The position numbers and the translations under genes are program-made. Source: Ginglymostoma cirratum (lineage: Eukaryota). From it: DNA of 64,000 bases. The stretch is taken from positions 22,994,601-23,058,600 of the forward strand of contig JAHRHZ010000140.1 of assembly GCA_024137785.1 (NCBI GenBank), in the 5' to 3' direction. Of the stretch, positions 1-58,700 are shown one piece after another. Under the pieces are notes generated by a model, which saw nothing but the letters and a program-made list of their open reading frames with translations, was not told where the DNA came from and ran no database searches. How positions within the stretch are numbered: the first letter of the stretch is position 1; every line of letters starts with the position of its first letter.

Positions 1-92
1 AGGGGTCACCGGACCCGAAACGTTAACTCTGTTTTCTCCTCCACAGATGCTGCCAGACCTGCTGAGCTTTTCCAGCAACTTTGTTTTTGTCA
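1..92 (+). mobile_element. Penelope-derived short repeat with the 3' half of a hammerhead motif (truncated by the window edge)
   Basis: GGGTC-ACCG-GACCC-GAAAC-GTT-AACT followed by the same tail as the copy at 2274-2415. Confidence 0.75.
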
Positions 93-2084
93 CTTCACTG
101 TTTTCTGTGGTTCAAATTTGAACAAGCCTGAGCTAGGCCTTATGTACATCCAGGGTCAGCCTTATCCTGCTGACTTCAGAATGTTATTTGTGGTACATGC
201 TCTGTCTCGATAATTATCCCAAAGTATAGAGAGGGAGCCACTCGCCTGATGACCAGCTGAAAGTAAATCGCTCACAGGCCATATAGAAGTACAGGACTGG
301 TTTTTCCAGTCTGTCTCAGTCAATGGAAAATGGACGTACGCTTGCTGCTTTCCTGGGTCTGACCTTTGAGCTCTTAATATAGTTTGTGATGAAAAGTTTT
401 TGCAGTTTATTTTAATAACCAAGTGAACCTTTGGGACTGTTGATTTGAAAAAAGAAATGTGCTGAGGTCAGGACAGGGCTGGCATTTATTTGTCATTGTA
501 AGCAAATTCTGTATTTGGTAAAAGGAAGCAGATTTAGTAACAGGAGCAGGAATATGCTATTTAGCCCTTTGAGCTTGCTTTGTTACTTTTCTCCCATAAC
601 CCCTAATACACAATTGACAAAAATGAACATCCAAGTTAGCATCAGCTACCATTTATGGGTATGTGTTCCAAACCTTTACTACCGCATAGAAGATTGCTAA
701 TTTTGCATCTGACAAGTCTGCCTGTAATTGTTTTTTAGATTATGGGTCCTAGAGATATGCCTCACTGGAGTAGCTCAATGGGAAACGAACCTTTCTATTT
801 CATCACAAAAATTAAAGATTTTATAGAAGTATAGAAAGTTTAGTTTTAGCACAAGAAGTACTCACTTATTACAGATAAACAATTGTGGACCCATTGACAA
901 TAATTGCATTAGTTAAAACTACAACCCCCATAGAAAATGTTCCCATTGCACATGCTGACGGACACAAATAATCACTTGTTACAAACAGAGGAGAAGACTA
1001 GGAGAGCAGTTCAACAGCCCCTGTCTACATGGCTCATTGAGATGGTCCTTTATGACTTGTCAGGACCTGCTGCTCCTCAATCCATCTTCCTCCATGTTAT
1101 TTTACATCACTTGCAGGGTGACTGGTTCACTTTTTTTAAATTGTCTTTGATTTATTGGTTAAAAGCTACAGTTTATAGCAACTAATGAGGCAAAAATAAA
1201 CTGGCTTTCTTCAGGCCTGAGGTGTTTTTACAGCAGAGCGAAGGACAGTTATTCCTTAGTGAGGTCTGATGGCTTCTGCACAAATGTGTACACTCAAGCT
1301 GCTCAGCCAATCGCGTAGTTGTTGGCAGGCAGAAGATCTTTGTCATCAATCCTGGTCACCCTTCCACAGACCAATCAGCTCTTTGTTATTGGCTGAGTCA
1401 CCGCTCAGACGTGGTCTAGAGTGTCCCCTCAATTTGTTAGCACTTGAACTGGAGCGAAGAATGCTGCCGGCTAAGTCACAGCTGACACAGCGAAGAATGA
1501 GAGAGAGAGAGCTGTCTCCTGATGTACTTCACATCTCAACTGATGTCATTCAAGAGCAGATGTTTTATTGAGGTGGAGGTGGTGGTGGTGGTGGGGTGGG
1601 GGGAAGGAGAAACAAAAGAGGACCAGCAGGAATGCAGTAAGTTTGTTGAACTTGCTGGTCCCTGCTGTATTACCCATTGCGTGCGCTTCAAGTAAAATAG
1701 CTCTTTGTCGGTCGACTTAAGGAACTCTGTTCTCATTTGTAAAGTTAAAATGAAATCACTATCAAGAATTATCTTCTCTCCCTTTGCTATTTTACGATTA
1801 CTTAGGTTCAGCACAGGGTTACAATTTCCAAAATGTTGCCTGTGTGCTCTGTCAGCTGGCCGTTGGATAAAAAGACTTGTTAATGGTTCTGCCTGCCGTT
1901 TCCTCATATCTATCCATTACAGCATCTCAGGAAAGTAATGTAAAATATGCTGTGTACAGTATGGAAAAAAAAACTGATTTCCACATTCTGACCTCCAGAA
2001 AAAGTTGTTTCCTCAGTCTGTGATTTCCCTCCTACACCTTCATCTACTTGACAATCTGTTCATGTTGTTGTAATACAAATTACC

Positions 2085-2192
2085 ATGAGACATAGGAGCA
2101 GAAATTAGGCCATTCGGCCCATCGAGTCTGCTCCGTCTTTCAGTCATGCCTGATAAGTTTCTCAAACCCATTCTCCTGCTTTCTGCCCATGT
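2085..2192 (-). mobile_element. CR1 LINE 3' end fragment
   Basis: catgagacataggagcagaaattaggccattcggcccatcgagtctgctccg is the reverse complement of a CR1 3' tail. Confidence 0.7.
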
Positions 2193-2273
2193 AAGACCAT
2201 AAAACATTACAGCAAGGTTATTGTCTGCATTATGTGAAGGCTGGGTTTCTAAGGGGCAGGTGGGCTAACATCC

Positions 2274-2415
2274 AGTTCTGGGGAAGGGTCACCGGGCCCG
2301 AAATGTTAACTCAAGTTTTTTTTCTTCGTAGATGCTGCCAGACCTGCTGAACTTTTCCAGCAACTTCTGTTTTTGTTCCTGATTCGCAGCATCCACAGTT
2401 CTTTCAGTTTTTATT
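2274..2415 (+). mobile_element. Penelope-derived short repeat with degenerate hammerhead motif
   Basis: AGTT-CTGGGGA-A-GGGTC-ACCG-GGCCC-GAAAT-GTT-AACT; flanked by an 11/14 direct repeat (2261-2274, 2416-2429). Confidence 0.75.
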
Positions 2416-3079
2416 TAGACCAACATCCAAAGCAGATTGCCTTAACTTTTATAGTGTGTCATTGATTATTTAGCCTGGTGTGGATTGCATGTTAATGCAA
2501 TTGAAAATGTAGTTACACCTCCGTGTTAGACAGAACAAATATTATCCCTGCAGCTGTGATATGACACGTTTCCTAAGAGTTTTAAAACACATTGATTGAT
2601 GGAACTGAATTAAGTCTAAGCTTGGTCCATGTTTAGGCCTCAGCTGGGCTTTGTGCGCTGTCTTTGTGTCTGTGTCTGCAACCACAGGTGAGTGTCAAAT
2701 CAGTTTTGTTTAGTAACTGCTAAATTTTCAGCAGGTGAAAGTTCATTCATCTTTGAAGGATATTGATCCTCTGCCATTGTAGTTTTCACTCCTTTCATAT
2801 ATTTGGTTGCTGTTAGTTTTGGAGCATTGCTGCCAACCTCCTCCCCATCCCCTGATGAACAAGCACCAGAGCAACAAAGCAGGTGGATTATGCTGACATT
2901 GTAGTTAGGGTTGAAATATTGGCTGGGATGTGTACAGTGACAGACATTATTAAGTGGTCTGACATTTTTGGAAGCAAATAAATTGCTGGGCCTGAATGAC
3001 ATATCTCCCAAGCTCCGAAGCTTAGTATTAGCAGAGCTAAGGCCATAATTTTTCCATCTCCTCTTGATACCACAGGACT

Positions 3080-3545: not shown

Positions 3546-4217
3546 AAAGTGCATGCTATCTGTGGCACTGTCCCTGAACACACTCAGTTCTATCAATGTC
3601 ATGAGGGCCAAGCTAGGGATGAGCTTGGTTGTTATAATGGGCAATGTCATACTGTTTGGCAGTTGGGCACTTTGCCCCATATTCAGTTCTGTTGACCGAT
3701 CGAGTCGAGTCTCTGGGTGACGTAGCTGACAAAATCTAAAAGTTTTACGTCATCTAAGGTCACTTTTTATTCCTCTCACCGCCTCAATGTATATTCTAAG
3801 GGAGTTTTTCATTAGATTGGTTTTTTTTGGAAAGCATTAAAAATACAGTTTCCCTATTGATTCTGTGCAGGAATAATGCACATCTACAAGTTTCTCACAT
3901 GTACCTTGCGTCACAATGGAGTAGACAAAATGCTTCTTAACTTTAGCTGACCTTTATTTTTGTTTGAAGGGTTCGTGTTGCTCCTGAGTCGAGCACAATT
4001 AGATCGCTGTAGTGAAGTATCATTACAATGATGAGATTCTACATGTTTGGCTGGGTTGTCGTTTGTACAGTTGTATCCTAGATTGTATGGGGAGCGGCAG
4101 TGATGACAGGCCAGGAGAATTCTGCAGCCAATTGAGTCTCCCAAAAGGGCAACGGCTTCAAATATTTGCAAGATTCTGTTGTTGTTTTCAGATTAAATGT
4201 GTAATATCCTTTGGCAG

Positions 4218-4413
4218 GATCCCAATGCAGATTTCTGGATTGTTCCAATAATCCAAGGGTTTGTGCAGATTGAAGAGCTGGTTGTCAATTATAATGAATC
4301 TTCAGATGATGAGAAAAGCAGCCCAGAAAGTCCATCACAGGAGCAATGTGTGGATGACATCCACCCAAGGTTTTTGGTGGCAATTATTTCGCGGAGGAGT
4401 CGACACAGAGCAG
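4218..4413 (+). CDS. INPP5F: INPP5F coding exon (DPNADFWIVPIIQGFVQIEELVV...FLVAIISRRSRHRAG)
   Basis: cag|GAT acceptor, G|gtact donor; Sac motifs IQGFV and ISRRS. Confidence 0.95.
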
Positions 4414-5049
4414 GTACTGAAACACTGTTATATTCAGACCGCAGTGAGAAGCAGATAGATGCTCAAGGTCTCCGTTGATAACCATCTGTTGTTCCCTTCT
4501 GTTTCTTTTGGTGGAAGCCTTTAGAGACCCATTGCTGTTCAATCTGTCCTTGTACTCCACGATTCTTTAGCTTCTGAGATTTTCTTGAAAGGTTTAACAC
4601 ACGTTCATGTGCCTCAACAAAGCAAATGGGGCATTCGGGTGCTACGTACAATTTTGCTGCTTTTTAATATGCAGAACATGTAAAATTTCATTGTAATCAT
4701 TCGGTATTCTTCCACCCAGCCTGGTTTGACCACAGCATGTTTTAACTTTGTGATTTCCCAAAGGAAGAATGTTGATTTCCCATGAAAAAGGCCAAGCTTG
4801 TTCATCTCCTTTCTGAAAAGTTCTCCCACTCTTGTTGCTTTTTCTAAGTTGTTTTATGGTAGAATGATCACTGTTTTCTCACTTAGGTTTTCTCAGAACA
4901 GACCTATAAAGTGTTCCTTGTATTCTCCTGTTGGTAAAGATCTTGCGATGATTGATTGCTGGCTTCTATAAATCTGTGTCAAAGTTCACCTGGAAATGGT
5001 CCTGTGAACTGTCCTGGGATATCTGAATATATTCAAATAGTATATGAAA

Positions 5050-5460
5050 GCCAACTGTTTACTTAGACTCTTTCTCTGCCCGGAAAGTCTGCACTTTGTT
5101 AGGTTTTAGCTGTAGGTGCACCTGCAGTGCTTTTCTAAATGGAGTCCCAGAATTGTGACCCAGTGACACAGAAGGAGCAGTGATAAAGGCCCACGTCAGG
5201 CTGGTATTGGCTTGGAGGAGTACTTGCAAGTAGTCATAGTGTTCCTGTGCAGCTGTTGCTGTTGTCATTCTAGGTGGTAGGATCATGGATTTACAAGGTT
5301 GTGTTGTAGGAGGTTTAGTGTGTGTGTTTTTTTTTTTATTCACGTGTCACTGTTTGGTGTATACTGCTGCTTTTGTGTGGAGATGGTGGAAGGGGTTGAA
5401 CTTCATTGAACTCACTACTGCATGTTGTGTTGGTGATAGTCCACTTGAGGGCTGTCTTGA
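5050..5460 (-). mobile_element. CR1/L2-superfamily LINE 3' fragment
   Basis: Reverse-complement similarity to copies at 8760-9220 and 16101-17055. Confidence 0.55.
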
Positions 5461-6169
5461 ATTTCCATTACTCCTTTTCTTATGATCTTTTTGGTTCAAG
5501 GCATTCGGTCAGCAGTTTGCAGGTGCCCCCATGCTCCTTTTTCTTTGTGTTAACTTCAGCTGATGTCTAGAGCAAAAATCCACCCTTTATCTATCCTTGC
5601 CTCTTCTGATTTTGTTTAAGGTTTCTGGGTGTTCCACTCTGGAGGATGTCAGGATAACAGTATGTCATACACACGGCACATTGTGCAGTTGGGGCTGAAG
5701 TGCTTTTCATTTTCCCATCATGGTAACTATCTGGTTTAGTTAACTCTTCATAAGACAATGGTCTCGAATGATTTGACCTGAATTGAAACAGCTAAGCTAA
5801 CATTGGTCGGAAATGTTTGTGGGGGTTAGTTCAGGTAAGAGAAGCTGTTAATCAAGTGCATGATTGAACAACTCTTGCTGTGGTCTCTCATTGGAGAAGT
5901 GCTGTTATTTTCCAAGGTCTTGTTGGGGATGCAAGAGTTTTGCTTTCTTTCCCAACTTGCTTGTTAAGAAAGCTGCTCGTATTTCTGGTAACAAGAACAA
6001 GGATCACGACCAGGCCATTCAGCTCCTCATTCCTGCTCTACATTCAACAAGAGTATAGATCATCTGATGGTAATCTTCAATCCACATTCCTGACTGCTCC
6101 TGTTGAGCTTTTATCCCTTCGCTTCCTGAGAACCTATTCATGTTGGACTTAAAAATATTCAAGGATTCT

Positions 6170-6790
6170 GCTTTTGACCAGGAAGAGTTCCAAAGTAACA
6201 CACCCTTCGGAGAAAAATGTCACCTTGCCACTGTTTAAAATGGGTCACCCCGACTTTAAACAGTGTACCCTAGTCCTAGATTTACCCCTGAGAGGAAACA
6301 TCCTCTGCATATCTAGTGTGGCAAGACTAGTCACGATTTCACATTAGCATCAATTTGCCTCCTACTCTTCTAAACTCAAGCTGATTTTTTTCCATGTAAG
6401 ACAACCTGCCCGTTTCAGAGATTAGCCCAGTAATCCTTATTTAAATTACTTCCAATGCTTTTCATTCCAGTGCATCCTTGTTTAAATAAGGAGATGACTT
6501 GTAGTCACGGCTCTCCAGATATAGCATCACCAATGCCCTGTATAACGAAAGCATAACTACCTACTTCTGTACTCCTGTTTCCCTTGCATGAAAAGGTAAC
6601 AGTTTGTAACCCTTCCCAATTACTTGCTATTCCTGTGCACTAATTGTTTGTGAATCATCTGACACGGAAGTCCCTCTGCATTTCAGAGTTCTGCAATCTC
6701 TCACCATTGAGATAAACGTTTCAACTTTTCCACCAAAGTGAAATGTTTCATATAATACTCCATTTTCCAGATATTTACCCCCTCGTGGGA
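6170..6790 (-). mobile_element. Old CR1 LINE fragment (3' part), continues at ~8101-8590
   Basis: Reverse-complement CR1 sequence; interrupted by a younger + strand CR1. Confidence 0.6.
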
Positions 6791-6861
6791 AACTGTGCTT
6801 GATAATTCTGTTGGAATTCTGTGAAGGTGTAACTCGTAGAATGACTGACTGTCTCCTGCTT

Positions 6862-8100
6862 GTCAAATGTGGTTTCTCTGTGCTTTCAGAAAGCATTTGA
6901 CGAAGTCCCGCGTTAGACATTTAATGTGCGAGATTAAAGCGCATGGGATTGGGTCAAGTGTACTGAGATTGATGGGAAACTGGTTGGCAGAGAGGGAACA
7001 GAGTAGGAATTAATGGGTCCTTTACAAATTGGCAGGCAGTAACTAGTGGGGTGCGACAGGGATTGGTGCTGGGATCGCAGCTATTCACAATATATATTAA
7101 TGATTTGGCTGAGAGAACAAAATGTAACATCTCCAAGTTGGCAGATGATGCCAAGTTCGGTGGGAGGATGAACTGTGACAAGGACGCAAAGATCCTTCAG
7201 CATGATGTCGACAGGTTGGGTGAGTGGGCAAATCAATAGCGGATGCAGTATAGTTTGGAAAAATTAGGTTATTTGCTTGGGAAGCAAAAACCAGAAGGCA
7301 GATAGCTACCTGAATGGCTGTAAATTGGGAGAGGGGAGTGTGCAGCGGGACCCAGGTGTCCTTGTGCACCAGTCACTGAAGGTAAGCATGCAGGTACAGC
7401 AGGCGGTAAAGAAGGCAGATGGTATGTTGGCCTTCATTGCGAGAGGTTTTGAGTACAGGGGCAGGGATGTGTTGTTGCAGTTGTACAGGGACTTGGTGAG
7501 ACTACACCTGGAATATTGTGTGCAGCTTTTGTCTCCTTTGCTGGGGAAGGATGCTCTTGTTCTCAAGGGAATGCAGTGAAAGTTTACCGGGCTGATTCCG
7601 GGGATGGTGGGACTGATGTACAAGGAGGTATTGACCGACTGGGTTAGGATTGTTTTTGATGGACCTCGGATGAATTCCGCGGGGGGAGGCGCAGTGGTGT
7701 TGGGGGGCGCGCGGTGGTTGGGTGGGGGGAGGTGGTGGAGGATCTCGGACTTAAAATTTTAACAGGATTAGACAGGCTAGATGCAGAGAGGATGTTCCTG
7801 ATGGTGGGTGTGTCCAGAACCAGGGGTCACAGTATGAGGATTCGGGGTAGACCATTTTGGACGGAGATGAGTGGTGAGCCTGTGGACTTCAATACCACTG
7901 GAAGTAATTGATGCCAATACATTGAAGGTATTTAAGAAGTGGCTGGATATAGCACTTGGGGTGAATGGGATCAAAGGTTATGGGGAGAAAGCTGGATTAG
8001 GCTATTTAGTTGGACGATCAGCCACGATCGTGATGAATGATGGAGCAGGCTCGAAGCGCCGAATAGCCATCTCCTGTTCCTATCTTCTATGCTTCCATGT
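6862..8100 (+). mobile_element. CR1 LINE, 5'-truncated, RT pseudogene plus 3' tail
   Basis: Peptides FQKAFDEVP, GVRQGLVLGSQLFTIYINDL, KLADDAKFGG, LVRLHLEYCVQ; ends in a ttctatg-type tail; stops and frameshifts. Confidence 0.92.
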
Positions 8101-8590
8101 AAACCATCCATAGCCTTTTGTAAGCTCTTGTCCTCTTCACAACTATCTTGGTGTTGCCAGCAAATTGGGCAACAATATCTTGGACCCTTCACTTAAGTAA
8201 CTTATATAAATTATAAACAGTTGAGGTCTTGGTTTTGATCCTTGTGACATCTTGCCAACTTGCAGAAGATTTATTAATGTCCAATCTGTTTTCTCTTAAC
8301 CAGTCAGTCTTGTATCTATGCCGAGGTGCTTACCTGTTAAGCCAGAAGCTTTTGTTTTCTGCAATAACCTTTAATGTGCCACTTTAGAAATCCCTTCTGA
8401 AAATTTAAGTGCAGTGTATTCATCCCTTTTATCCACAGTGCATATTACTTCCTCAGAGCTGACTTTGACCAATCTAAGATGATCCCTTTTTCAAAAAACC
8501 AGGTCGACTCTGCTGGATTACCTTGAAGTTATATACATGTCCTGCTATAATTTATTGAATACTAGTTCCCCTCATTTTCCCTGTGACACA
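8101..8590 (-). mobile_element. Old CR1 LINE fragment (RT part)
   Basis: ctatcttggtgttgccagcaaatt is the reverse complement of a degenerate FADDTK region. Confidence 0.55.
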
Positions 8591-8759
8591 CCTTTAAGGC
8601 AACTCGCCTCCTCATGTAACAGAGGACCTGGGATACCTTTTGTTATACAGTTATGGAATAGAGAGTTTTAGTTTTGGCAATTATGTTGAAGCTTTTTTGA
8701 CTGTGGAAGAGTTTTAGCTGTTGGATCTGTCAGCGTTCATGTCGGAGAGGTCTGTGTTT

Positions 8760-9225
8760 CTGCTGGATGTATAAAATCCAAACATGCCAAACATCCACTT
8801 GCTGGGGTGAGTGCGGCTCCAACAGCACTCGAAGCTTCACAGTATCCAGGACAAAACAGCCCTTTGCACAACCTCCCCAGTATTTACTCCCTTCACCGCT
8901 GACACGCAGTAGCAGCAGTGTGTGCCATGTACAAGATACACAGTAGTAACTCACCAAGAGTCCTATGACAGCACTTTCCAAAACGGTAATCTGTACAATC
9001 TGGCAGCAGATGCAGGGAAACCCCACTGCCTGTAGGTTCCCTCCCAGCCACACACCATCCTGACTTGGAACTATATTGTTGTTCCTTACACTTCATTGTA
9101 CCTACGCCTCAAAGATTGCAACAGTTCGGGGAGGCAGCTCACTACTGACTCCTCCTGGGCACTTAGAGATGGGCAATAAATTCTGGCCTTGCCAGAAACA
9201 TCGACATTCAGTGAAGAACTTTTTT
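8760..9225 (+). mobile_element. CR1/L2-superfamily LINE 3' fragment
   Basis: Same family as 16101-17055; tail gggcacttagagatgggcaataaattctggccttgccag. Confidence 0.7.
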
Positions 9226-9859
9226 TTAAAAAAAATCTTCTGAAAATGGCTAAAAAGATTAGGTTAAGGGAAGTGAACGGGACAGTCGAATTTGTCCTTG
9301 ATTATTGTACAAATAAATAACGCTGGCGTAATAACCCAAGAGAACTCCTTTTGAGCTGTAAGTCTCTGGTTTTTATTTCAAGTAAATTTATAGATAGCAG
9401 GTCAGGCTGTATTTGTGGAGAGAGAAATGTAACACTGGAGCTCTGTGATATTGCACCAGTGTGCTGATCCTCGGCCTTACAAGGTTGACTGGTTCTTTCT
9501 CCACAGATGCAATCTAGTGTGAATATTTCCAGTCTTTGTTTTATTCCAGATTCCAGTGTTTTGATTTGGTAATTTTGCACCACCTTGTGACTCATAATTG
9601 AGCATTCTTTTGTAAGAAGACAATTCTATCTCTGTTTCCATGCTGGGAATAGTTCAGTGTCGTAATTGATATGGTGCATCAGCAGATTCTGACAACCTTT
9701 TTATATGATGACTGAATTTCAAAAAATAACTAATGTGTGCACTCCATGTTGGTTATTGGCTTCATACAGTTTGTTTATTTGTGGAAGAGCGGGAACCATT
9801 GGAAGGTGCAGATTTAAGTTGCTGCTGGAAGGCCTGTGCTGGGCTTTTGCACCTTTAAG

Positions 9860-10190
9860 CCCCTGGGCTGGGATTGAGGGCGCACTGCACTGCGTCAAAA
9901 CGGGCTGTGCTACAGATCAGATACTTTTTGCTTTGGTTGGTTTGAAACGTTTCGTGGCCCGCTTTTTGAGAGGGGCAGGGGAATGATCTCTAGTTACCTG
10001 TCTGATATTTATCCCTTAATTAACATTGCAAGAAGTGGTTTCTGTGGTTGTGATGACATCACCACTGTTTGTGGAAGTTTGCTGAGACTAATTAACTGCG
10101 TTCCCAACACCACAGTAGTGCCAACATATAGTCTTCATTGACTGTCAAGTGCTTTACAATGTCTGATTATGAAAAGTGTTGAGTAAACTC
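9860..10190 (+). mobile_element. Deu-domain SINE (SacSINE1/AmnSINE-like), degenerate
   Basis: Core-like gaggggcagggg...atatttatccc...ctgtttgtggaagtttgctg and L2-like tail cattgactgtcaagtgcttt. Confidence 0.6.
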
Positions 10191-11079
10191 TGATCTGTTA
10201 TCTCTTGTTCAATTCTCCCATTGCGAGTTGGGTACCAGTGTGGACAAACCTAGACTCGAGTGACCTCTGCAGTTCAAGAAGGCAGCTCCTCACCAGTATC
10301 TAGGGGAATAAATGGTTCCTCTGCCAATTACGGCCACATGCCATTAAAGGATGGTGCAGACTAAGAACTCTTGCTGTGATTTAGCATATCCCTGGGTATG
10401 TCCCCAACTGCTTCACTAGCAAGTGCTGTCACTGTCACTAAGGAAAGCGTAGCCTATTTTAAAGTACGTACCGGTAACGACAGTGAACCCGACAGAGTGT
10501 AAGAGCCCGAGCTCCTCCATTACCGCTATTGTCCTTGCACTCTGCCATCTCGATCTTTAACGGTCTAAACTGTTACAGTGAAACTCAATAGAAGCTTGTG
10601 TAGACTCCTAGTTTTACTATTGGGCACTTTAAAGCTGCCTGGCATTAATAGACTTTCCCTTAATTAACGTTTAATAACCTGTTAAATGTAGCTTCCACTA
10701 TTTCTTCTGGAATAAGTGGTGATGCAGCTTGAGTGAATGCCTCTTTGTCTAAAGTGTGGTAGTTTATGCAGAGCATTGTTTGTGGGACACAGAATCCCTT
10801 TGCCATTTTAGTGATGGTTTGAGTTACGTGCAAATTGGCCAGTAGCCTGACTTTTCTATCAGTTCTAACTCTGCAACTTACCCACTGATCCATGCACACG
10901 TCGAACAAAATGAAAGCCTTAAACTCTATTTGAAACAACTAATACCAATATACTCCCTTCAGTCCTTAGTTTAATCAGCTAGCTGGTTGTAATGAATTTA
11001 GGGCATATCTTTGGTTTGTAAATTGAAGCTAACACCTCTAAAAGAAGGATTATGAACATAGACTGGTGTTTGTGAGGGC

Positions 11080-11800: not shown

Positions 11801-12279
11801 CTTTGAAGCCTTGAACCTTGAGGGAGTAATCCCTGGGTTGTCGTCATCTTGGCCTGCCGCAATAACTATCCCAACGGTGTCACTTGTATTTGGTTGCTGT
11901 CATGTAGTCAACTGCATCTTGCTTGAGACAAAAGTCACTTTCCGTTAGTGAGTTTTCTCTACCCACAAGGCCCCTCTGCTCTGTGGATCCCGATCAGGAA
12001 AAAGGACGGTGGCAGTAAATCTCTGTTAGTGTGGGCAATAATTCAGATCGCTCATGCGTGTTGAATTGCTTGATGGGTTCCTCATTCAACCACCCAGTTC
12101 TGTTTTTTTTTGAAGTACCATCCTGGTTTAGTGGAACTTCTGCAGCTGAGTCACTAGCTCATGGCATTGTTCTCACTCCAAAGGCCTGAACAGGTAAACT
12201 GGCTCACTTGATACTATCTGTGAATCCAACAAGCTTTAACTTATCACTCTTAACAATTAGAGTATAAAGCCCAATAATT

Positions 12280-39628: not shown

Positions 39629-39630
<2 letters not shown>

Positions 39631-47971: not shown

Positions 47972-48290
47972 TGGTGGTGGCACAGTGGTTACATTGCTGG
48001 ACGAGCAGTGTGGAACCCCAGGGGTCATGGGTGTGAATCCCAGAATGGCAGATGGTGAATGTAAGTTCATTGATGTCTGGAACAAAGTTGGCGTAATGGC
48101 AAATGGGTAACCACTGTAGGTTGTTGTCCAAACAAAAAAAAAATCTGATTTTAGTAACATCATTTAGAGAAGGAAATCTGCCATCTTTACCTGGTTTGGC
48201 TGATATGCACGCCAGATCCACAGCAGTGTGGTTGGCTCCCAATTGCAATGAATGCTGGCCTCGTCAGTGATGCCAACTTATGAATTGGGA
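47972..48290 (+). mobile_element. tRNA-derived SINE
   Basis: gtggcacagtgg A box, gggtgtgaatccc B-box-like, same body as 45096. Confidence 0.75.
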
Positions 48291-48769
48291 ACAAATATGG
48301 AAAAAAAAAATCTCAACGCCAAAATCAGCGGCAGCAGATTTTGCAGGGTGGGGTAGGGGAGCAGCAGAGTTCCTTCATTCCTCAGTGCAATTATAACCCG
48401 CCCAGCAAAACCGGCTAATATTAAAATGGCAGGTGGTAACACAGAAAATGAAATACCTATTTCTTTCTCCTTTTTCTAAGGAAGTTTTATTTAAGTAGGC
48501 AGGTTACCAGATAGCTCGGTGTTCCATTTCAATGAGCCCGCAGTTGGGTGTAAGTCTTAAAATAAGGCTGTGCCTATCAGCACTATGACCTGATTCTTTG
48601 TTGGAGACTCGAGTGGTCTACAAACTTGCACGTACTGTTTACAAGGTTCTGTGGTTTCAGCCTAGACTTGCAACATCCTGGTTTAAATCTTAATTTGCAA
48701 CCGAGCTGGAATATGGGAATTTTTCAATTAATACTTAGCAACAAAAGGCTCCAGGATAACAATCTGTTC

Positions 48770-48990
48770 TCTCGGGTCACGGACTCCAAGCCCCTGCTTG
48801 AGGATTTGAGCATGTTGGGCTGATGTTTCAGTGTCGTACTGAGGTAATCAGAGACATACTTAAGAGCTTTGAAGGAGTGATCATTCCCTTCAATAACTTG
48901 ATTATCCTCACTTGATCAAACATCTTAAAAGAAAATTATTATTTTATACACTAGTTTGGGCAATTTAAAACTTGCAGCCACGTTCTAAAA
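48770..48990 (+). mobile_element. Deu-domain SINE, degenerate
   Basis: ttgagcatgttgggctgatgtttcagtgtcgtactgagg head and Deu-core-like body. Confidence 0.45.
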
Positions 48991-49119
48991 CAAAATCTAT
49001 AATTCTGCTTCTTTAAACTTGGAAGCAAGAATTCTTAAAACTAAGTGTTTTACCTGCATTGGCCCAAGGTGGAGTAATGTTTTCAGAGTTGTCATTTTTT
49101 AAAGAATCCTGCCATGACT

Positions 49120-50745
49120 ACTTGCATCACCTCCAGAGCTTCCTGCAGCCCTGTGACCCTTTGAGATCTCTCAGTTCCTCCATTTGAGTCTCTTCCACAT
49201 GCTTGATTTTAATCAACACACCACCGCAATTGCACTCTGTCGCTGACGCTCTCGAATTCTATCCTGGGAATCTTGTCCTCTGTGCTTTCCTGTCAAAAGT
49301 GCTCCTCAAACCCACCTCTCTCCAACCTTTTTCGTCACAGTGTGTAAGTTCTGTTGTTGGACAGGTTGGACAAAGTCAGAAGTCACACATTTTAGTCCAA
49401 CAGATTTATTTGAAATCACAAGCTTTTGGAGCGCAGCCCCTTCATTAGGGTTCTGACGTGCCACAGCGCAAAACCACAATGACCACCTTGGAAGGCAGAC
49501 ACGGGATACGACTGATAGAGTAGCTTTCGTCGTCCAGTACTTCCCCGGAGTGGAGAAACTACGCCATGTTCTTCGTAGCCTTCATGCCATTGATGAGCAT
49601 CTCGCCAAGACCTTCTCAACGCCCCCACTTCAGACCTTCACACAACCGTCAAACCTTAAACAGGCCGTCATTTGCAGCAAGCTACTCAGCCTTTCGGATA
49701 AAAACAACCACAACACCACACGGCACTGTCATAGCAACCTCAGCAAGACACAGCAGATCATCAGCATGGATACTACCATCGCATGAATAGCACCCAACGC
49801 ATAAATGGCAGATACTCATGTGACTTGGCCAACATTGTCTATCTCATACGCTGCAGGCAAGGATGCCCCAAGGCACGGTATATTGGCAAAACCATGCAGA
49901 CACTACAACAATGGATGAATGGGCACTGCATAACAATTTCCAGATAGGGATGTTCCCTCCCAGTTGGGGACCACTTTAACAGTGAAGGGCATTCAGCCTC
50001 CAATTTTTGGGTTAGCATCCTCCAAGCCGGATGATGAGATACATAACAATGCAGAATTGCTGAGCGGAGACTGATAGCCTGGTTCTGTACCCATGACGAT
50101 GACCTTAACTGTGATCTTGGGTTTGTGTCGTGCTACATGTGACCCCACCATACTGTTCTGTATCTGTAAAATCTTCCCTTCTGTCCTGTTTTTAACATCA
50201 TCACCTTGATTAAATTATGATAGCTCTACCTTAATTAGTTTGTACAGTATTGAATTACTTATTACTTTGGTTAGACCCTCAGCATGCGACTCTTATACTT
50301 ATCCTGTCATTTAGTTTGTCTCCAGCTCCACCTTATTTTTAATTTTTTTTAATAATCTCACTGCCTCACTTAATTGGATTATAGGTCATCTCTTCGCTGG
50401 TTATTCAGATGTTGACATTTTACTCACTGTCTAATACTCTTGGACACCTGCAGAGACTTGTTATCTGAACAGTCCACTCAAACCAGTTGTCTGATCTTTT
50501 GATCTGTCTGCCTATAAACTGTGTCCATGTGGTCTCCTCTCTCCTATCTGACGAAGGGGCTGTGCTCGGAAAGCTTGTGATTTTGAATAAACCTGTTGGA
50601 CTACAACATGTTGTGACTTCAACCTTTTGGTCATTTGTACCATAATCTCCTTGTATGGCCGAGAACCAAATTTCTTTGCTTCTGTCAAGGCCTTGATGTT
50701 TTCACTGTGTTGAAAACATGAAGTTTATACATAGTTTCTGTTGAT
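49120..50745 (+). mobile_element. Old L2 3' fragment split by a Penelope insertion (pieces ~49120-49337 and ~50634-50745)
   Basis: Both pieces are collinear with the L2 tail at 28430-28750. Confidence 0.55.
49338..50619 (+). mobile_element. Penelope-like element, 5'-truncated, GIY-YIG endonuclease pseudogene, inverted terminal repeats
   Basis: 49801-50143 translates YSCDLANIVYLIRCRQGCPKARYIGKTMQTLQQWMNGH...HF...E..LI..F.T...LN with internal stops; 49381-49448 is an inverted copy of 50548-50619. Confidence 0.9.
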
Positions 50746-52202
50746 GTAAGTTACTGCTTTCTCCATCATTACTGGCCAATGTTTTGACTGGTTTACATGA
50801 CTGCTGACACACCAGGAGGGGATATTAAAAAGTTGAAGCATTGGTGAAAATATTTTAACTGTGTAGCTAATAGTTTTGAAACAAATAGTTGGAGACTGAG
50901 GCAGAAGGGCTCTTACCAGCTGCTACTTTGCACCTGATGATATTGCTTAGTGTTCAGCTTTGTGTTTATCGCAGTGTACAAGAGAGTGGTGATTTGTGCA
51001 TGTCTAATTCTCTCATTCTATAATGTTTTGATCTTCTGGAGCTTTAAAATAAGAAAATCTGACTCTGCCTTTAGCAGAGACTTGTGGACCAAGTCTGACT
51101 GACTTTCCTGGATTTTTTTTCCATGTCCACTGCAATCTGCCAGGATTTAAAAAAAAAAGTCTTTTTTGTTTACTCATTCTAAAATTGTGGTTTCCAACTA
51201 TTCCAAAAATCTTCAACTTTTCACCTGGATGGGTTTATCTGAAAGCTTGATCCAGATATTAGTTATTGTCTGAAGAATGTCCTGTCATTAGCCCTTCATT
51301 TGAACTTGTGGTCCTTTTGCCTTGTTCCCGCTTTTGTTTTAAAAGCACTTATGGCCATTTTTCTTTCAGTCACATAAATCCATGGCTAGGGATGGGCAGC
51401 AAAAAAAAGTACACTGAGGTAATATAGTCTTCAGTGACAGGCAACCAACCACTCACTTCTGAGTGATGTGCCTGTGTTGAAAACCTTTTTCCATCCAATG
51501 ACATTAAACTGCTGCAATGTTTACCCAGGGATCAGTACTAGTATCAATTATAAAAATAAATGAATGATTTTTTTTAATGGCTCTGATGACTTTGAAGAAA
51601 ATCGCCCATAAAGATGTAGTAACCATTGCATACCTTTCAAACTTCTGTAGCAGCTTTCTGGCATCCAATAATAGTGGTGACATTAAATAGACTAAATAGC
51701 CAGTCTCAGTGAAAAATTCTCAAATACAGCAGGAAGTAAAATTCACTCGTTATCCTTCACTTTTTCAAATATTGGGATAAAGATTGGGCTTAAGTTGGAA
51801 GTTGACATTTCTAAATTTTTTAAACAAGTTTATATTTACAGTGTAGGGGTTTTTAATCATGGGGTTTTGCAGGACTACAGAGATTATCAATAATTGTGAC
51901 TTGGTACGCTGTTTTTAAATCTCACTTACACTGCATTCAATAAGCTGTTTTTTGCGATCTTTAACTAAACGTGAAAGGTGGAACATCACCACCTATTCAG
52001 ATTGGTTTTTCACTTGGGGTTTTCACCAAACACAGGGTAGTGGGGAATTAGAATTGGCTTTTCACCGGTAAATGTGAATGTAAATCTGTACATTGCAGGC
52101 GCCAGAGATTTGTCACTTTCGCAGCTGTAATGATGAATGATGGAGGCTTCTCAGATAGCAATCACAGAATCGGGGCAGTCATTTTTAGTTTGGTTTCTTG
52201 TC

Positions 52203-52738
52203 AGAAACTCTGGTGCGGCCGCACTTGGAGTATTGTGTACAGTTCTGGTCGCCGCATTATAGGAAGGATGTGGAAGCATTGGAAAGGGTGCAAAGGAGAT
52301 TTACCAGGATGTTGCCTGGTATGGAGGGAAGGTCTTATGAGGAAAGGCTGAGGGACTTGAGGCTGTTTTCGTTAGAAGAAGGTTATGAGGTGACTTAATA
52401 GAGACATACAAGATGATCAGAGGATTGGATAGGGTGGACAGTGAGAGCCTTTTTCCTCGCATGGTGACGGCTAGCACGAGGGGACATAGCTTTAAATTGA
52501 GGGGTGATAGATATAGGACAGATGTCAGAGGTAGGTTCTTTACTCAGAGTAGTAAGGGCATGGAACACCTTGCCTGCAGCAGTAGTCGACTCGCCAACTT
52601 TAAAGGCATTTAAATGGTCATTGGATAAACATATGGATGATAATGGAATAGTGTAGGTTAGATGGGCTTCAGATTGGTTTCACAGGTCGGCGCAACATCG
52701 CGGGCCGAAGGCCCTGTACTGCGCTGTAATGTTCTATG
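52203..52738 (+). mobile_element. Young-looking CR1 LINE 3' fragment
   Basis: [38 protein letters not shown]; RTDVRGRFFTQ; tail gtaatgttctatga. Confidence 0.95.
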
Positions 52739-53186
52739 ATTTTGGTGCTTAAAACTGTTTATTCATGTCACTTCTCAGCCATTTTTCTAATCTCTAAGTG
52801 ATGGAAAATGTCAAATTGTTGCAGTTCTTTGTCTGTTAAACAAAAGTTTTAAGTGTTTTCTGATTGGGGATAGTGGCGTTATAAGCATACCGGATGGAGT
52901 TTTGTAACAGACGCTTTCCAGGTTCATTAAAGTACATTTCTAATTTTGAAGTCAGTGTAACATTTGGCAGCAATAACAATGTTGTCTCTGGTGGTTATTC
53001 ATGGTAATATGGTGATTTAAAAAAACTTTCAGAAGTTTACAGTTTTATTTCAAAATGACTGTGAAGTTTGCAATTGGGCATGTAGCCTTCATTCTACCAG
53101 GAGACTGTATAATGGTGTGTGAACTATGCAAGAGTGCCCACCAAGGCAATGGAGCTGACGCAATCAGACGACAATCTAATAAAGAT

Positions 53187-53309
53187 AACAAGCGTGGGGC
53201 TGGATGAACACAGCAGGTCAAGCAGCATCATAGGAGCAGGAAAACTTGACGTTTCGGGCCTAGACCCTTCATCAGAAAAACTCCAGCATCTGCAGTACCT
53301 TTTATCTCT
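53187..53309. mobile_element. Penelope-derived short repeat with internal inversion and TSD
   Basis: 53187-53280 is the element 5' part on -, 53281-53309 the 3' tail on +; direct repeats aatctaataaagat / aatctattaaagat. Confidence 0.8.
53245..53278 (-). ncRNA. Minimal type I hammerhead ribozyme motif
   Basis: Minus strand TTT-CTGATGA-A-GGGT-CTAG-GCCC-GAAAC-GTC-AAG: all core residues, stem II and GUC triplet present. Confidence 0.65.
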
Positions 53310-53679
53310 AATCTATTAAAGATGATTTGTTATCCCTGAATGGTATCATTGTAAAATGACGGCAGTTATATGCCTTGAACTTTTTTTGTTTTGAATCTCT
53401 TTCACAGCATATTAGCCCAATTGCCTCCAGAAGTAGTTTGTTACTATTTTAGGAGTGGAGGAAGGGTTTTTAAATAGTGCAAACTCAGTTTTAAGTTCTC
53501 TTTTTTTTGTGGGTAAAGTTTTCTAGTTCTGTAATTACGGGTAATTGTTCATCTATATCAGCTACTTCCATCTGTCTGAAATGCTTGAACCCTCTACATG
53601 ATTCCTTAATGGTAGAACATCACAAGTGTAATTTCTAACATTTATGATGTTATTGGAGTTCCACAAAACTTGTTGCTGT

Positions 53680-53910
53680 CTCTTTGTTCACTGGATGTGG
53701 CTGGTAGCATTTATTGCCAATTTCTAATTCCACTTGAGAAGGCTGAGATGTTGAGCTGTTGCCTTTTACAACACTGCAGGTACTATTAGTTGACCAAAAG
53801 TTGACAGTGTCATTAGTCAGGTATTCCATGATTTTCAAACAGTAATAAAGGAACATTTCCAGTTTGGGGTAGTGAGTAATAAGGAGGGGAACTTTTGTGT
53901 TCCCATGTCT
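53680..53910 (-). mobile_element. CR1/L2-superfamily LINE 3' end
   Basis: gatgtggctggtagcatttattgccaatttctaatt is the reverse complement of the family tail. Confidence 0.6.
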
Positions 53911-54632
53911 TTTTCACATGATCTGATCCATCTCATTTGAGCACAGCTGTAATAAATGAGCTACACCAGTGTTAAAGGGGAAGGGTTCACCTCAGGTCAG
54001 TGTAGGAACAGGTCACCTATTGGCTGTCTTTGCCAATGAAATGTACTTGGTTGATGAATGCTCCCTGCTTGCAACGTGGTTGTTTTCTGTTCAGATTGGA
54101 GTCTTGTTTCTCATCTGCCTCAGGAATCCCATGAGTTAAATATTTTGGAAGATAGGGAGTCTTGATCAATTTTCTGAAGTCAGTCTTGCAGTTTACGTGG
54201 CAGGTGTGACACTGTGTTCGCAGCTTGTATTATTTTGAGTGGTCAGATTGTTGCCAGTCACTGAATTGTCGAAGAAATGTGCCTCCATATGTACTAATGT
54301 CTGGGGTGGGGGGCAGATTTCTTTTCCCAAAGAAACCCATCTTGTTTGCTTGAGACTTCATTGTTGTAGGGGCATCAAGAAACAAACTGTTGGATTTGGT
54401 ATTGAAATACAATTCTACCTAAATTTAAAACAATCTAGTTCGGCACACCCCACTCGAGTGATGGGAAAGTTAATATACTGACTACTGCAAAAGTTGGCAG
54501 TCTAAATTCATTAATGTATCTTTCTGATTGCTAGGTTTCTCTTGGCTTAGAGGTAATGTAGTAATATTTTTGAATACAGTTTTTTTTTTTTTTTGACTGA
54601 AGGGAATGAGAGAATTCTACATTGTCTTGCAG

Positions 54633-55794
54633 GAAGCACAGTAAACCACATGAAGATATCCTTGGCATCCGATCCAAGAGTCAAGCTGCAAGCAGTACAA
54701 GCCTAACTCAAGGCAAGAACTTTCTTATGAACAAGTTTTCTTCTCTCAATCAAAAAGTAAAGCAAACAAAATCCAACGTGAGCATTGGAAGCCTTCGCAA
54801 ACTTGGCAACTTTCCAAAGCCAGAGATGAAGGTAAATTTCTTGAGACCAAACCTGCGAGTGAACCTGTGGAAGTCTGATAGTAGCTTGGGGAGCTCCGAT
54901 TCACCAGTGGTGGTCTCTAAAGATGATTCTGATTCTGACATAGAGATCTCTTCCAACTCGGACTCTTTTGCATCAGATGGTTTCCTCTCCAATTCGAAAT
55001 CAGATGATGAATGCCAGCTGACAGACTCTGAAGATGTAGGGCAGTGTGATTATGTTCTTCCCAGTTGTGGTATTGTCGCTACAGGACCTCGATCACGACT
55101 AGGAAGTCGATCGCAGTCTATTAGCAGTTCAGATTTTAGTATTCCAAGTAATCCTTCAGAAATGCACATAGCTCAGTGTGATTCTGAACATATGAATAAA
55201 GACATGATTGATGTCCAGCTTTCTGGCAAAGCATCAAATGCGGATGAAGGTATCCTGGTGGATTTCAACACTCCCACTGATGTTTACTGTCACCAGTTTA
55301 TCCAAGATGCACAGCACAAAGATCCAGAGGCTCCTGTTGGAAACCGTGCTTTCCATCAGCAACAACTTGAGCAAAGCAATACTATCTTGGGCACCAAGTC
55401 TAAATCTGAACCAGAGATGGTGGAACCACTTTTATCAAGACCCTCCAAGCTGGATGTACCCTCAGCTACCTCAAATCAATCGTTACTTTCAATAGAACCT
55501 GCTGTGTCATCTGATAACAGTTCAACCTGTGTACTCCATTCACCTGAAGTGGAGACCGGTTTACAAGCAACTCCTTCAGCAGCAGATGAGTCGGGGAGCA
55601 GGGCTGTTTCACCATTTGCTAAGATCCGAAGCTCTATGGTCCAGGTAGCAAGCATGACCCAAGCAGGACTGCTTCAGGGGGTAAACTTTGCAGTGGGAAA
55701 AGTTCAGCGCACCCCTGATGGTGCAAACGAAGGGCAGCATCCGCAACTGACCGATATGTTTACACAGTGTCGGACCAGGATAATCCAAATTTAG
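54633..55794 (+). CDS. INPP5F: INPP5F terminal coding exon (RKHSKPHEDILGIRS...RAVSPFAKIRSSMVQVAS...FTQCRTRIIQI*)
   Basis: cag|G acceptor, TAG at 55792-55794; corresponds to the 390-aa ORF in the track. Confidence 0.97.
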
Positions 55795-56716: not shown

Positions 56717-56722
56717 AATAAA
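56717..56722 (+). promoter_or_regulatory. Candidate INPP5F polyadenylation signal AATAAA
   Basis: AATAAA ~920 nt after the stop, followed by a T/GT-rich tract (cctgttgttttgt); further AATAAA at 56879 and 56886. Confidence 0.6.
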
Positions 56723-57789
56723 CTCCTGGTATTATCACTTTTAAATATTTAAATGTGCTTATTTATTCCTGTTGTTTTGTCACAGTGTGGTTTCTTTGGA
56801 ATGTTTAAAAACCATCCACATATGCTTCAAAGTAGATATACTCCAGTGTATTTTGACATGAGGGATGTACATTATTTTAATAAAAAATAAAGCAAAACAT
56901 ATGTTTATATTTTTTTCCTCAGTGCAAGTGTCAAAGATAAAATTCATCCATTTATTTAGAGTGATTACTGCACATTTCAACACACTGGCTAAGATGAGCA
57001 CAAATAGCCTTTGCACCGTTGAAGAAGACAAAAATGGATGAGACTGAGATGTAGATTTTAATTTGAAGAAAAAACAACCTACCCTGGATCAATTGAGAGA
57101 AATAATTAATGATTCTGGTCAATCGTCTTTGATCGGAATTGGTTTAAAGCAACTTCAGAGGAATGGGGAAAGGGCGCAAAAATGTCAAAAGACACTATGT
57201 TGCAAAACGAGGATGATAATGGGACAAATGAAGGAAACAGGTGGTAAAGCAGAATCAGTGACTTGATTACGACTGAGAAACTAAACCAGTCAGCTCACAG
57301 TTTGATTAGTGAATGAGTATGAATCTGGAAGCCCATAAAATGCCATTTGAGCTTTGATGGAACACTGCAGGGACTAGGGAGGTCAGTAGGAACTGAGTGA
57401 AGAATTCAAGTGATATGTGACTAGTTGTTTGGTATTGTGTTTACCCATTGACTTTGTGTTGTGCAAATGTGGTTAATTTACATTTATTTTCCCAATGTAA
57501 AGGATACCACACTGCACAATACAAGTCGTACACAAACTGGAGTAAAACCAGTAAATCACTGCTCCACCGAGAAGTATTGCTTGGGGCCATGGTTGCACAG
57601 GAGCAACAAAATGGGGAAGTGTCATTTCCTCCCCTAGTGTCAAGGGGAGTGGTGATTATGCATAGTGTTGACACAAGGGGAAGATGTTTGGTAACGTCAC
57701 TGGCAGATGAGGAAAAGGTATCTACCTGCAATGGACATAATATAATCCAACCAACTGTCATTTAGGTCATCCTCAGTTAAGGTAAACAG

Positions 57790-58165
57790 TGACATATTTT
57801 AGAAGTGTTGATTTACACTGTTGCATTGTCAGAATGGACGTGCAAAGTTTTTCAAATCAATTTTCTGCAACAATATGTTAATTTCATAATTAGTCTGATA
57901 ACCTCCACAGTACAGGTGCTCTTGTCAAACTGGAGTACCTCGGGATGGGAGAGCTTTCCAATGGTTGGAATCATCTTGGCAGAAGAAAAAAATGGTTGCA
58001 CCTACTGGAGACTGATCGTGAGTCCCAGGATATACTTGAAGTTCTTTCAGCCGCAACCTTAGGTTTGACTACCTTTTTGTTGTTTCATTGATGGTGAAGA
58101 ATTACAGCATCATTGTAAGGTTCTTGGGAATAGTAATGCAGTAGCCTGGACAATGTTCTGGTCAC
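57790..58165 (+). mobile_element. CR1/L2-superfamily LINE RT fragment
   Basis: Degenerate RT region (ctcttgtcaaactggagt, cccaggatatac..ttcagccgcaacc). Confidence 0.5.
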
Positions 58166-58269
58166 ATCAATGCCATTCCATTCCATTGTAACAGCTGATG
58201 GAATTTAATTTGGCATATAAAGCTAATTCAAGCAATGGTAACTGAAAGGTAAAATACCACCTGTAACCT

Positions 58270-58700
58270 GACCAAACAAACAAAAATGCAACACTGGAGA
58301 AACTCTGCTTTCTCTTTACAAATTCTGCAAGACCTGCTGGGTAATCCTCTGATGTTGCCTGGCCTGTTGTGTCCTTCCAGCTCCACACTTATCTCTGACT
58401 CCATCAGCAGTAGTTCTTACTATCTCTGAGACTTACTAAGTTCATGTTTTGAGTCCAGTGACTACCTTCACAACTGATAGGATCCAGGAAAAGCTGTCAT
58501 TATCTTGATGCCAGGAGTGGGGTGGGCAATGAGTGAGTGGATAAGTGGAGACTGAGTCCAGAGCAAAGGTGGAAACAAGTTAGGCAACGGGATTGTTGAT
58601 AGTAAGCCAGAGAGGAAGTGAGGTGTTTGGAAATGGCTGTGCTAAAAGCAATCGGTGTCATGAAAGGACCTGGTGGAGGGTGGAAGGTGACAGGCCCACT
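58270..58700. mobile_element. Cluster of Penelope-derived repeat pieces in both orientations
   Basis: + strand tail 58345-58427 (gatgttgcctggcctgttgtgtccttccagctccacacttatctctgactcc); - strand degenerate motif 58438-58475. Confidence 0.6.

Follow-up and report, generated by a model that had tools for sequence, protein, structure and literature searches.

Hammerhead-bearing repeats around INPP5F of the shark Ginglymostoma cirratum as end-pieces of Penelope-like elements

Described relatives of the shark repeats

Minimal hammerhead ribozymes (min-HHRs) are known from the pLTRs of metazoan Penelope-like elements (PLEs) and as scattered solo copies, with examples from fish, coelacanth and Xenopus (Cervera and De la Pena 2014, PMC4209133); no shark entry was found in the consulted text and searchable supplement of that paper. 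The repeats described here come from a 64-kb stretch of the genome of the shark Ginglymostoma cirratum (contig JAHRHZ010000140.1, positions 22,994,601 to 23,058,600), hereafter the window. As far as the consulted parts of PMC4209133 describe the min-HHRs, the shark motifs share with them the type I arrangement, the absence of a real helix III (palindromic 15.2-16.2), the extra nucleotide between A9 and G10.1, the G10.1-C11.1 pair, the short helix I and an occurrence mostly as scattered single motifs from truncated PLEs. They differ in that stem II is shorter (4-5 bp) in shark families A to C and in that we place the hammerhead at the transcript start, of which no discussion was found in the same parts of that paper. 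The shark density is ~39 intact motifs per readable Mb, to be set against ~4,000 motifs per genome in coelacanth and ~9,000 in Xenopus, which were counted with a different descriptor (PMC4209133).

For the Poseidon element of Anolis carolinensis (PAc), the start sites of reverse transcription (RT) were measured in vitro (Frangieh et al. 2024, PMC11167929). The shark elements resemble PAc in what appear to be two internal RT start sites bounding a tail, in the apparent cutting and extension of both target strands and in the apparent use of uncleaved RNA as template, with no reads ending at the cleavage site. The PAc ORF, however, starts inside the hammerhead and includes the tail, whereas in shark family A both lie in the 5' leader, and a Neptune-type CX4CXXC linker is encoded in the ORF. 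A CX2-5CxxC linker between RT and EN is part of the architecture of Neptune-clade EN+ PLEs (Craig et al. 2021, PMC8557442). With Neptune and other EN+ PLEs the shark elements have in common this linker (in families A and B), 5' truncation, partial tandems, an inverted 5' copy and a 30-40-bp tail at one end only, and with a rotifer pLTR the presence of TATA plus Inr-like motifs; in contrast to them, the dominant shark product is a 100-140-nt stub reaching from the start to a priming site (PMC8557442; Arkhipova et al. 2013, PMC3846280). Penelope of D. virilis has a TATA-less internal promoter (PMC2377424). Non-LTR retrozymes, covered by a 2026 retrozyme/PLE survey that includes one chondrichthyan (bioRxiv 10.64898/2026.07.22.740005), are similar in their type I hammerhead, their PLE pLTR kinship and their presence in that chondrichthyan, but they consist of tandem units each with a hammerhead, whereas the copies in the window are dispersed singles or head-to-head pairs, accompanied by only broken PLE ORF remnants, and no tandem monomer arrays were seen in its 64 kb.

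Copies in the INPP5F window

The host gene INPP5F/SAC2 (4206..55794, + strand) is represented by 14 mapped coding exons, which correspond to aa 239-1153 of the closest shark protein. A sequence-only reading had reported eight copies of the hammerhead motif, mostly in INPP5F introns. All eight motif stretches are indeed present, each within a repeat family, and five of them lie between mapped exons; two others precede the first mapped exon (aa 239; earlier exons were not found) and are probably intronic, and the one at 58438 lies 2.6 kb past the stop codon, outside the main RNA coverage, which tails off by ~57,000. A complete minimal hammerhead, however, is present at only one of the eight, 53252-53275 (-).

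At the left edge, a family C (GUU) pLTR piece (1..90, +; element +13..+101) is 93% identical to the family C reference (match 3-90); its motif at 1-30 is truncated by the window edge and thus the CUGAnGA box, the 5' core of the hammerhead, is not visible. The family C short copy at 2274..2414 (+; element +1..+139, ending at the outer of the two 3' sites described below) has an 8-bp TSD and a hammerhead broken by A6>G (site 2278). Older family A is represented by a copy that extends into upstream pLTR and has a short inverted arm on its 5' side (24185..24510, +; arm 24185-24225), in which site 24434 has one broken stem II pair and C15.2>T, and by a short copy at 42485..42606 (+; element +7..+130; 7-bp TSD), in which the first core letters are missing and G12 is changed to A (site 42485). 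The motifs at 49417 (-) and 50548 (+), which had been counted separately, turned out to be the two arms of one 1.28-kb family B element (~49332-50616) with a 9-bp TSD, CAACCTTTT, at 49323-49331 and 50620-50628. Its inverted arm (49341..49449, -; +7..+123) carries a decayed hammerhead at 49417-49448 with G5>A plus G12>A (site 49448), and its forward arm (49450..50628, +) consists of a broken ORF end at ~49457-50141, in which the zinc-finger linker and GIY-YIG survive as remnants, followed by the 3' UTR, TATAAA at 50513-50518, the hammerhead at 50548 with C11.1>G, and AATAAA.

The sole intact hammerhead belongs to a young family A copy (53183..53278, -; element +2..+97). This 53.2-kb insertion also has an inverted 'tail' arm (53281..53312, +; +104..+135) and, outside both arms, a 14-bp TSD with 1 mismatch; positions 53180-53278 match the end of L018, a longer pLTR copy, with 100% identity. 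The region 58300..58600, the boundaries of which are approximate, is a composite of a C-like remnant and an older-A tail piece on the + strand (~58300-58427) and, on the - strand, a decayed C-like hammerhead at 58438-58475, with both the CUGA box and G12 lost (site 58471) and pyrimidine-rich sequence upstream. A compensatory GAGTC/GACTC variant of stem II suggested by this site was not found as a pair in the loci examined. Beyond the eight, pLTR pieces were found at ~12301-12370 (-), where a decayed pLTR/hammerhead remnant follows an RT-thumb-like piece in an old PLE fragment (12301..12952, -; tblastn 40%, E 3e-5), at 32356-32443 (-; family C, element +53..+139, without the hammerhead), at 35521-35632 (+; decayed, C-like) and at 58343-58427 (+). 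The description of the copies as TSD-flanked units of 120-150 bp held in part: TSDs are clear at 2274, 42485, 53.2 kb and the 49.3-50.6 kb element but not at all eight sites, and the copies at 24431 and 58438 are not such units, as both carry further upstream pLTR-type sequence.

Parent elements and the hammerhead motif

By their sequence, the repeats are the pLTR ends of three protein-coding PLEs (RT plus GIY-YIG), families A, B and C. The longer copies, in which the repeat of each family runs continuous with a coding PLE ORF, bear out the Penelope origin proposed in the sequence-only reading. A single ORF with RT and C-terminal GIY-YIG, the hallmark of EN+ PLEs, is present: in family A, element L069 matches Pfam GIY-YIG with E 2.4e-5 (above the cut-off) and RVT_1 with E 6.6e-5 (below the cut-off), in family B a GIY-YIG ORF is linked to the repeat, and in family C the ORF ends upstream of the repeat (L108). 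The pLTR-to-ORF junction is seen in L185 and L189, in agreement with the partial-tandem pLTRs of EN+ PLEs, and L186, L202 and L203 begin at the hammerhead edge. The zinc-finger-like CX2-5CxxC linker is CNRRKCYTC in A and CHGNLCKTC in B and is not clearly read for C; families A and B may thus be placed with Neptune by the linker motif rather than by an RT tree. Family A is young and has many long open frames (178,304 first-look candidates, with many stop-free frames of >700 codons); its hammerhead and tail lie within a 5' leader of ~170 nt before the ATG. A fourth family, D, was found outside the window (13 matches).

The majority sequences of the families have the minimal type I architecture (CUGAnGA, N, stem II with G10.1-C11.1, GAAA, palindromic 15.2-16.2, UH, short helix I), as had been proposed; one of the eight window sites shows it, six depart from it and one is cut off. 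The proposed division into three families by cleavage triplet (GTC, GTT and CTT, i.e., GUC, GUU and CUU) was also borne out, GUU being the triplet of family C. From one family to another all three helices, I, II and III, covary, pairing being kept with different letters: III is C-G or G-C, II.4 is U-G, U-A, G-C or A-U, and I.1 is U-A, C-G or A-U. When sequences are chosen without a pairing filter, stem II is paired in 566/572 A, 109/120 C, 38/44 B and 24/24 D sequences and stem I in 485/572, 105/120, 38/44 and 20/24, respectively, and both values drop when the register is slid by one.

A strict descriptor (exact core, stem II of at least 4 bp, paired 15.2-16.2, UH) matches once in the window, at 53275 (-), 17 times in 437 kb of arbitrarily placed genome stretches and 0 times in each of 10 dinucleotide shuffles, and the motif is therefore not a product of chance. 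Since the 437 kb are the readable 44 of 88 arbitrarily placed 10-kb stretches, the other 44 having been dropped, genome totals derived from them are extrapolations. A covariance-model scan of the window, suggested earlier as a check, gave no Rfam hammerhead match at E<=10, which is expected for hammerhead motifs without helix III. Single units fold no better than shuffles (z +0.6 to -1.0). In minimum-energy folds of A, B and C the tail pairs with the catalytic box, but a switch based on this pairing was rejected as unsupported because shuffled tails pair too, in 361, 230 and 855 of 1000 cases, respectively.

The core is intact in 118 of 145 A, 23 of 65 C and 8 of 31 B copies. Its decay after insertion is strongest at G12, which is part of a CpG and is altered in 13, 27 and 17 of these copies, respectively. 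For the non-CpG core, conservation does not clearly exceed the background level in B (p 0.63) or C (p 0.05); in family A it does (1.2% vs 3.9%, p 1e-8), which mixed subfamilies and BLAST selection may explain. As predicted from the state of the core, most copies cannot be active ribozymes.

Copy ends and the origin of the short units

In family A, full-length and short copies share their starting point. Among copies not selected for their ribozyme, 5' ends fall within -5..+3 in 16/49 cases in family A (P 2e-10) and within -6..+5 in 28/39 cases in family C (P 4e-14), both relative to a uniform distribution over a short range, and the pile-up site overlaps hammerhead stem I. A TATA-like box at ~-31 and an initiator-like YYANWYY at +1 are present in A, B and C, the upstream sequences of which are unlike, and their spacing is constant in 101/201 A (those with upstream pLTR), 10/31 B and 3/101 C copies; the short copies have no upstream TATA box. 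Position +1, as read from motifs and copy ends, is likely the first nucleotide of the element RNA. The 5' pile-up is not universal, since family D for the most part retains sequence upstream of its TATA box. BLAST ends at +33..+38 had pointed to a second pile at the cleavage site, but these ends were traced to diverged subfamilies, assembly gaps or microhomology seams and the idea was rejected: no 5' ends were found at the family A cleavage product (+33), and two family C ends at +33 coincide with a short microhomology shared with the other arm.

The 3' ends lie at two fixed sites ~35 nt apart, inner (+98 in A, +102 in C) and outer (+132 in A, +139 in C). Two-armed inserts are head-to-head, with TSDs of 12-18 bp, and 21 of the 23 that could be assigned have one inner and one outer end (P 3e-5), the tail being on one arm; in 63 of 98 gap-free inserts no inverted arm was detected. 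All 11 family A seams differ, two of 10 family C seams coincide (L014, L132), and many seams have added or deleted bases and are not perfect palindromes.

RNA-seq depth peaks on the +1..+132 unit, and 82% of aligned reads continue into unlike sequence. The unstranded poly(A) run shows no site where many molecules begin or end, and a look for cleaved RNA in RNA-seq, as suggested earlier, brought no accumulation of read ends at the cleavage site; the runs aligned were poly(A) and low-coverage ones. No splice joint was found in the family A leader among the joints listed; run X20, with 12 reads, is uninformative.

It is likely that most of the short end-pieces are dead-end cDNAs of the first 100-140 nt of uncleaved mRNA, which is predicted to start with the hammerhead. 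The endonuclease would nick both target strands, and from each 3'-OH reverse transcription would begin at one or the other of the internal sites, as with Anolis Poseidon in vitro. If the priming sites near the transcript 5' end are used, RT would run off at +1 and leave a promoter-less stub; if those of the downstream pLTR are used, copying back into the ORF would give long 5'-truncated copies. As the two arms often cover overlapping stretches of the template, the model would require either strand displacement or two RNA molecules. The ribozyme would be under selection in the active masters, in which the cut, probably made as a dimer or with protein help, would remove a 32-34-nt leader together with its cap or shorten tandem read-through RNA; inserted copies decay. 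More tentatively, in these Neptune-type elements a hammerhead that runs from +1 of a Pol II transcript may be a cap-removing switch, with an RT dimer priming both strands from two sites ~35 nt apart on two uncleaved RNAs, and the hundreds of thousands of stubs, fixed in the genome, may be for Penelope what strong-stop DNA is for retroviruses.

The sequence-only reading had taken the short units for separate non-autonomous elements. Such independent SINE- or retrozyme-like units, with transcription by host read-through or from an internal promoter, self-processing by the ribozyme and reinsertion in trans by PLE protein, could account for the very high copy number (36 A and 25 C inserts in the 437 kb) and the abundance in poly(A) RNA; two C inserts share a seam, which is also expected of a propagating unit, pLTRs are able to act in trans (PMC3846280) and animal retrozymes were proposed to be PLE derivatives (10.64898/2026.07.22.740005). 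We nevertheless consider this origin unlikely, since the repeats are continuous with the PLE ORF, identity between short copies and the ends of coding copies reaches 100%, the stubs have no TATA box, no two A seams are the same, tandem monomers are not seen in the window and copy ends do not coincide with the cleavage site.

It is quite improbable, too, that the constant 5' end marks something other than the first nucleotide of the RNA, namely a structural stop, where RT stalls at the hammerhead, or a point of self-priming by fold-back on an antisense template, as proposed for rotifer Penelope in PMC3846280. Head-to-head inverted arms are common, as self-priming would have it, and the evidence for the transcription start consists of motifs and copy ends; yet the ends lie just beyond the whole hammerhead and not at stem II, where a stall is expected, three families with unlike upstream sequence have the TATA box and initiator at corresponding positions, the seams often depart from perfect palindromes, and the rule of one inner and one outer end fits two primed strands. 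As to the host gene, the five sites between SAC2 exons could mean that intronic copies are functional ribozymes cutting INPP5F pre-mRNA, but this is extremely improbable: the sole intact copy is antisense to the gene, every fully readable sense copy has a core or stem lesion, the window density is not above that of arbitrary stretches (1 strict site per 64 kb vs 39 per Mb) and minimal hammerhead monomers are inactive in vitro, according to the consulted part of PMC4209133. The inserted copies likely do nothing to INPP5F.

Since the motif and its host elements are already published and the copies are mostly dead, the shark repeats are ordinary as a ribozyme discovery. Their value is that of a natural record of poorly understood Penelope transposition: from a family that is young, rich in long open frames and sharply delimited at its 5' end and at two priming sites, exact predictions can be made for TPRT and for the ribozyme cut, which would remove the capped leader. 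The extrapolated numbers suggest that the genome holds of the order of 100,000 intact-looking hammerhead motifs as by-products, which calls for caution in ribozyme scans. If the reading of the short units as strong-stop-like stubs is true, it would explain the abundance of solo minimal hammerheads in animal genomes.

Hammerhead motifs and their parent elements

The hammerhead motifs of the window are real and of a known kind, and the repeats that carry them are new shark members of the Penelope-like elements (PLEs), present mostly as dead copies. All eight stretches listed in the sequence-only reading were found at their coordinates and could be assigned to repeat families, but as hammerheads only one of them, 53252-53275(-), passes a strict minimal descriptor; of the other seven, six are damaged in the core or stem II and one is truncated at the window edge. 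A scan of the window with Rfam gave no hammerhead match. The strict descriptor matched 17 times in 437 kb of arbitrarily placed genome stretches (the readable half, 44, of 88) and not once in any of 10 shuffles; the density in this sample is 39 per Mb (95% interval 23-62).

The Penelope origin proposed for the repeats is borne out by the continuity of these short ends (pLTRs) with PLE ORFs, and the three proposed cleavage triplets, GUC, GUU and CUU, are matched by families A, C and B. A genome search with the family A copy at 53.2 kb gave 1,760 first-look candidates, and many of these match the hammerhead unit at 100% identity. In longer copies the upstream sequence leads into an ORF that matches GIY-YIG (E 2.4e-5, which passes the Pfam cut-off) and, below the cut-off, reverse transcriptase (RT; E 6.6e-5). 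The pLTR-to-ORF junction is visible in loci L185 and L189, where the ATG follows the first hammerhead position by ~170 nt; L186, L202 and L203 start at the hammerhead edge and then run into the ORF. The family A protein gave 178,304 first-look candidates, many with stop-free frames; the 20 inspected were all 5'-truncated or gapped. A variable Ala/Thr/Pro/Asp-rich repeat (ADVTPPT-type) separates the N-terminal domain from RT in the L169 ORF. At L161 (G000:C144:17462001-17472000) two young family A copies lie head-to-head and both contain an open frame (700-850 codons); this pair is the multi-kb counterpart of the two-armed inserts described below.

In family B (CUU), 49341-49449(-) and 49450-50616(+), previously taken for separate copies, are a single insertion with a 9-bp target-site duplication (TSD) and a broken GIY-YIG piece. 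There are 8,030 candidates, the top scored relatives being 75-80% alike, with RT upstream. An AATAAA, absent from families A and C, lies ~12 nt past the cleavage site and upstream of the priming sites (window 50585-50592; copies L032-L055), so long B copies need read-through of that signal. Family C (GUU) has 3,153 candidates, and a PLE ORF end lies upstream of the repeat in L108. Families A and B share with Neptune elements (PMC8557442) the CX2-5CxxC linker.

Helix pairing and decay of the motif

With no selection beyond core letters and downstream tags, stem II is paired in 566/572 cells in A, 109/120 in C, 38/44 in B and 24/24 in D, a fourth hammerhead family, and stem I in 485/572, 105/120, 38/44 and 20/24; in every family both values fall when the pairing is slid by one position. 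The letters of helices I, II and III differ from family to family and, since copies inside one family are kin, it is the between-family changes that carry the weight of covariation. The expected covariation of stem II is present, pairing being kept with different letters across A-D. In family D (L013:2698-2927, L278:3091-3552, L054, L258, L252) stem II is longer, a TATA box is present and the 3' end is AC-rich, as has been described for Anolis Poseidon; its copies are often head-to-head pairs that keep the upstream pLTR.

The motif decays after insertion. The 11-nt core is intact in 118/145 A, 23/65 C and 8/31 B copies, and G12, which forms a CpG with C11.1, is altered in 13, 27 and 17 copies, respectively. 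Outside the CpG, conservation of the core does not clearly exceed that of neighbouring positions in B (p 0.63) or C (p 0.05). It does in A (p 1e-8), where mixed subfamilies and BLAST-selected copies mean that the conservation is not assignable to selection on copies.

Copy ends and a possible route of replication

Positions are numbered from the A (+1) of a YYANWYY motif that resembles an initiator; in families A, B and C a TATA-like box lies ~31 nt before it. The end map was built from copies in arbitrary stretches and in locus flanks; centres found with ribozyme-containing queries and every locus chosen by its ORF were excluded. The 5' ends of 16/49 family A segments (at least 88% identity) fall at -5..+3 (P 2e-10) and those of 28/39 family C segments (at least 84%) at -6..+5 (P 4e-14); stem I begins at +1 in both. 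No 5' end in the map lies at the A cleavage product (+33), and two C ends at +33 are two bases short of the product start, on microhomology. The 3' ends cluster at an inner and an outer site, +98/+132 in A and +102/+139 in C.

Among 119 inserts (75 A, 21 of them bordering a gap, and 44 C), 21 of the 23 gap-free ones with two assignable arms, i.e., head-to-head halves, terminate at the inner site on one arm and at the outer site on the other (P 3e-5); no second arm was detected in 63 of 98 gap-free inserts. TSDs are 12-18 bp where one of at least 11 bp was found. The seams of fold-back inserts often coincide with stretches of exactly 100 or 400 N (L013, L022, L027, L162-L168 and others), which means that many seams are concealed by assembly gaps and that the counts are biased against two-armed copies. 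The 437 kb held 36 A (25 short) and 25 C (23 short) inserts, which extrapolates to a few hundred thousand in the genome if unread DNA is alike.

Parentage, end positions, a one-sided tail and decay are observed features of the repeats, and a mechanism can be proposed beside them. We infer from the sequence that transcripts of A, B and C would start at +1. Target-primed reverse transcription would begin from both nicked target strands at two internal sites, as measured for Anolis PAc (PMC11167929), and would run off the mRNA 5' end, with the involvement of two RNA templates or else strand displacement; the ribozyme cut would take off a capped 32-34-nt leader. Against this mechanism stand the TATA-less D. 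virilis promoter (PMC2377424), family D, which has no 5'-end pile-up (13 matches), and a seam shared by two C inserts. On a family A junction, depth in an unstranded poly(A) run peaks on +1..+132 (up to ~8,500 per direction versus 50-400 at the start of the ORF); 82% of aligned reads continue into unlike sequence, and no position with many read starts or ends, such as a transcript start or a cleavage site would give, was listed. This pattern fits passive read-through of many stubs (short pLTR copies).

Genomic setting and significance

The host gene is INPP5F/SAC2 (14 exon matches, 4206 to 55791, + strand), with a top protein match of 93%, from a shark. The sites had been placed mostly in its introns, and five do lie between exons; of the other three, two precede the first exon that was mapped and one is beyond the gene end. 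Poly(A) RNA coverage at 58880-59800 (depth 5-14) is separate from that of the INPP5F 3' end and may mark where a neighbouring transcript ends. The introns also hold LINE RT fragments (7268-7758, 15184-16101, 37476-37799 and 52207-52589), which we take to be CR1/L2-like. A further dispersed repeat, part of which resembles a tRNA, has copies at 19737-19965 and 30710-30944 and is probably a SINE, and an inverted repeat at 36760-37007 (69 nt, 80% complementary, 110 nt apart) is possibly a MITE.

PLE pLTRs are known to carry minimal hammerheads, which also occur widely as single motifs (PMC4209133; shark terms are absent from one of its supplement files); TATA plus Inr in a pLTR, inverted pLTRs and a one-sided tail have been described too (PMC3846280). 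Hammerhead function in EN+ PLEs was called unclear (PMC8557442), and a retrozyme survey, in its accessible part, covers one chondrichthyan (bioRxiv 10.64898/2026.07.22.740005). Our search of the literature found no publication on shark Penelope hammerheads and none tying solo hammerhead copies to the transcript start. The shark PLE copies are a testable lead on Penelope replication.
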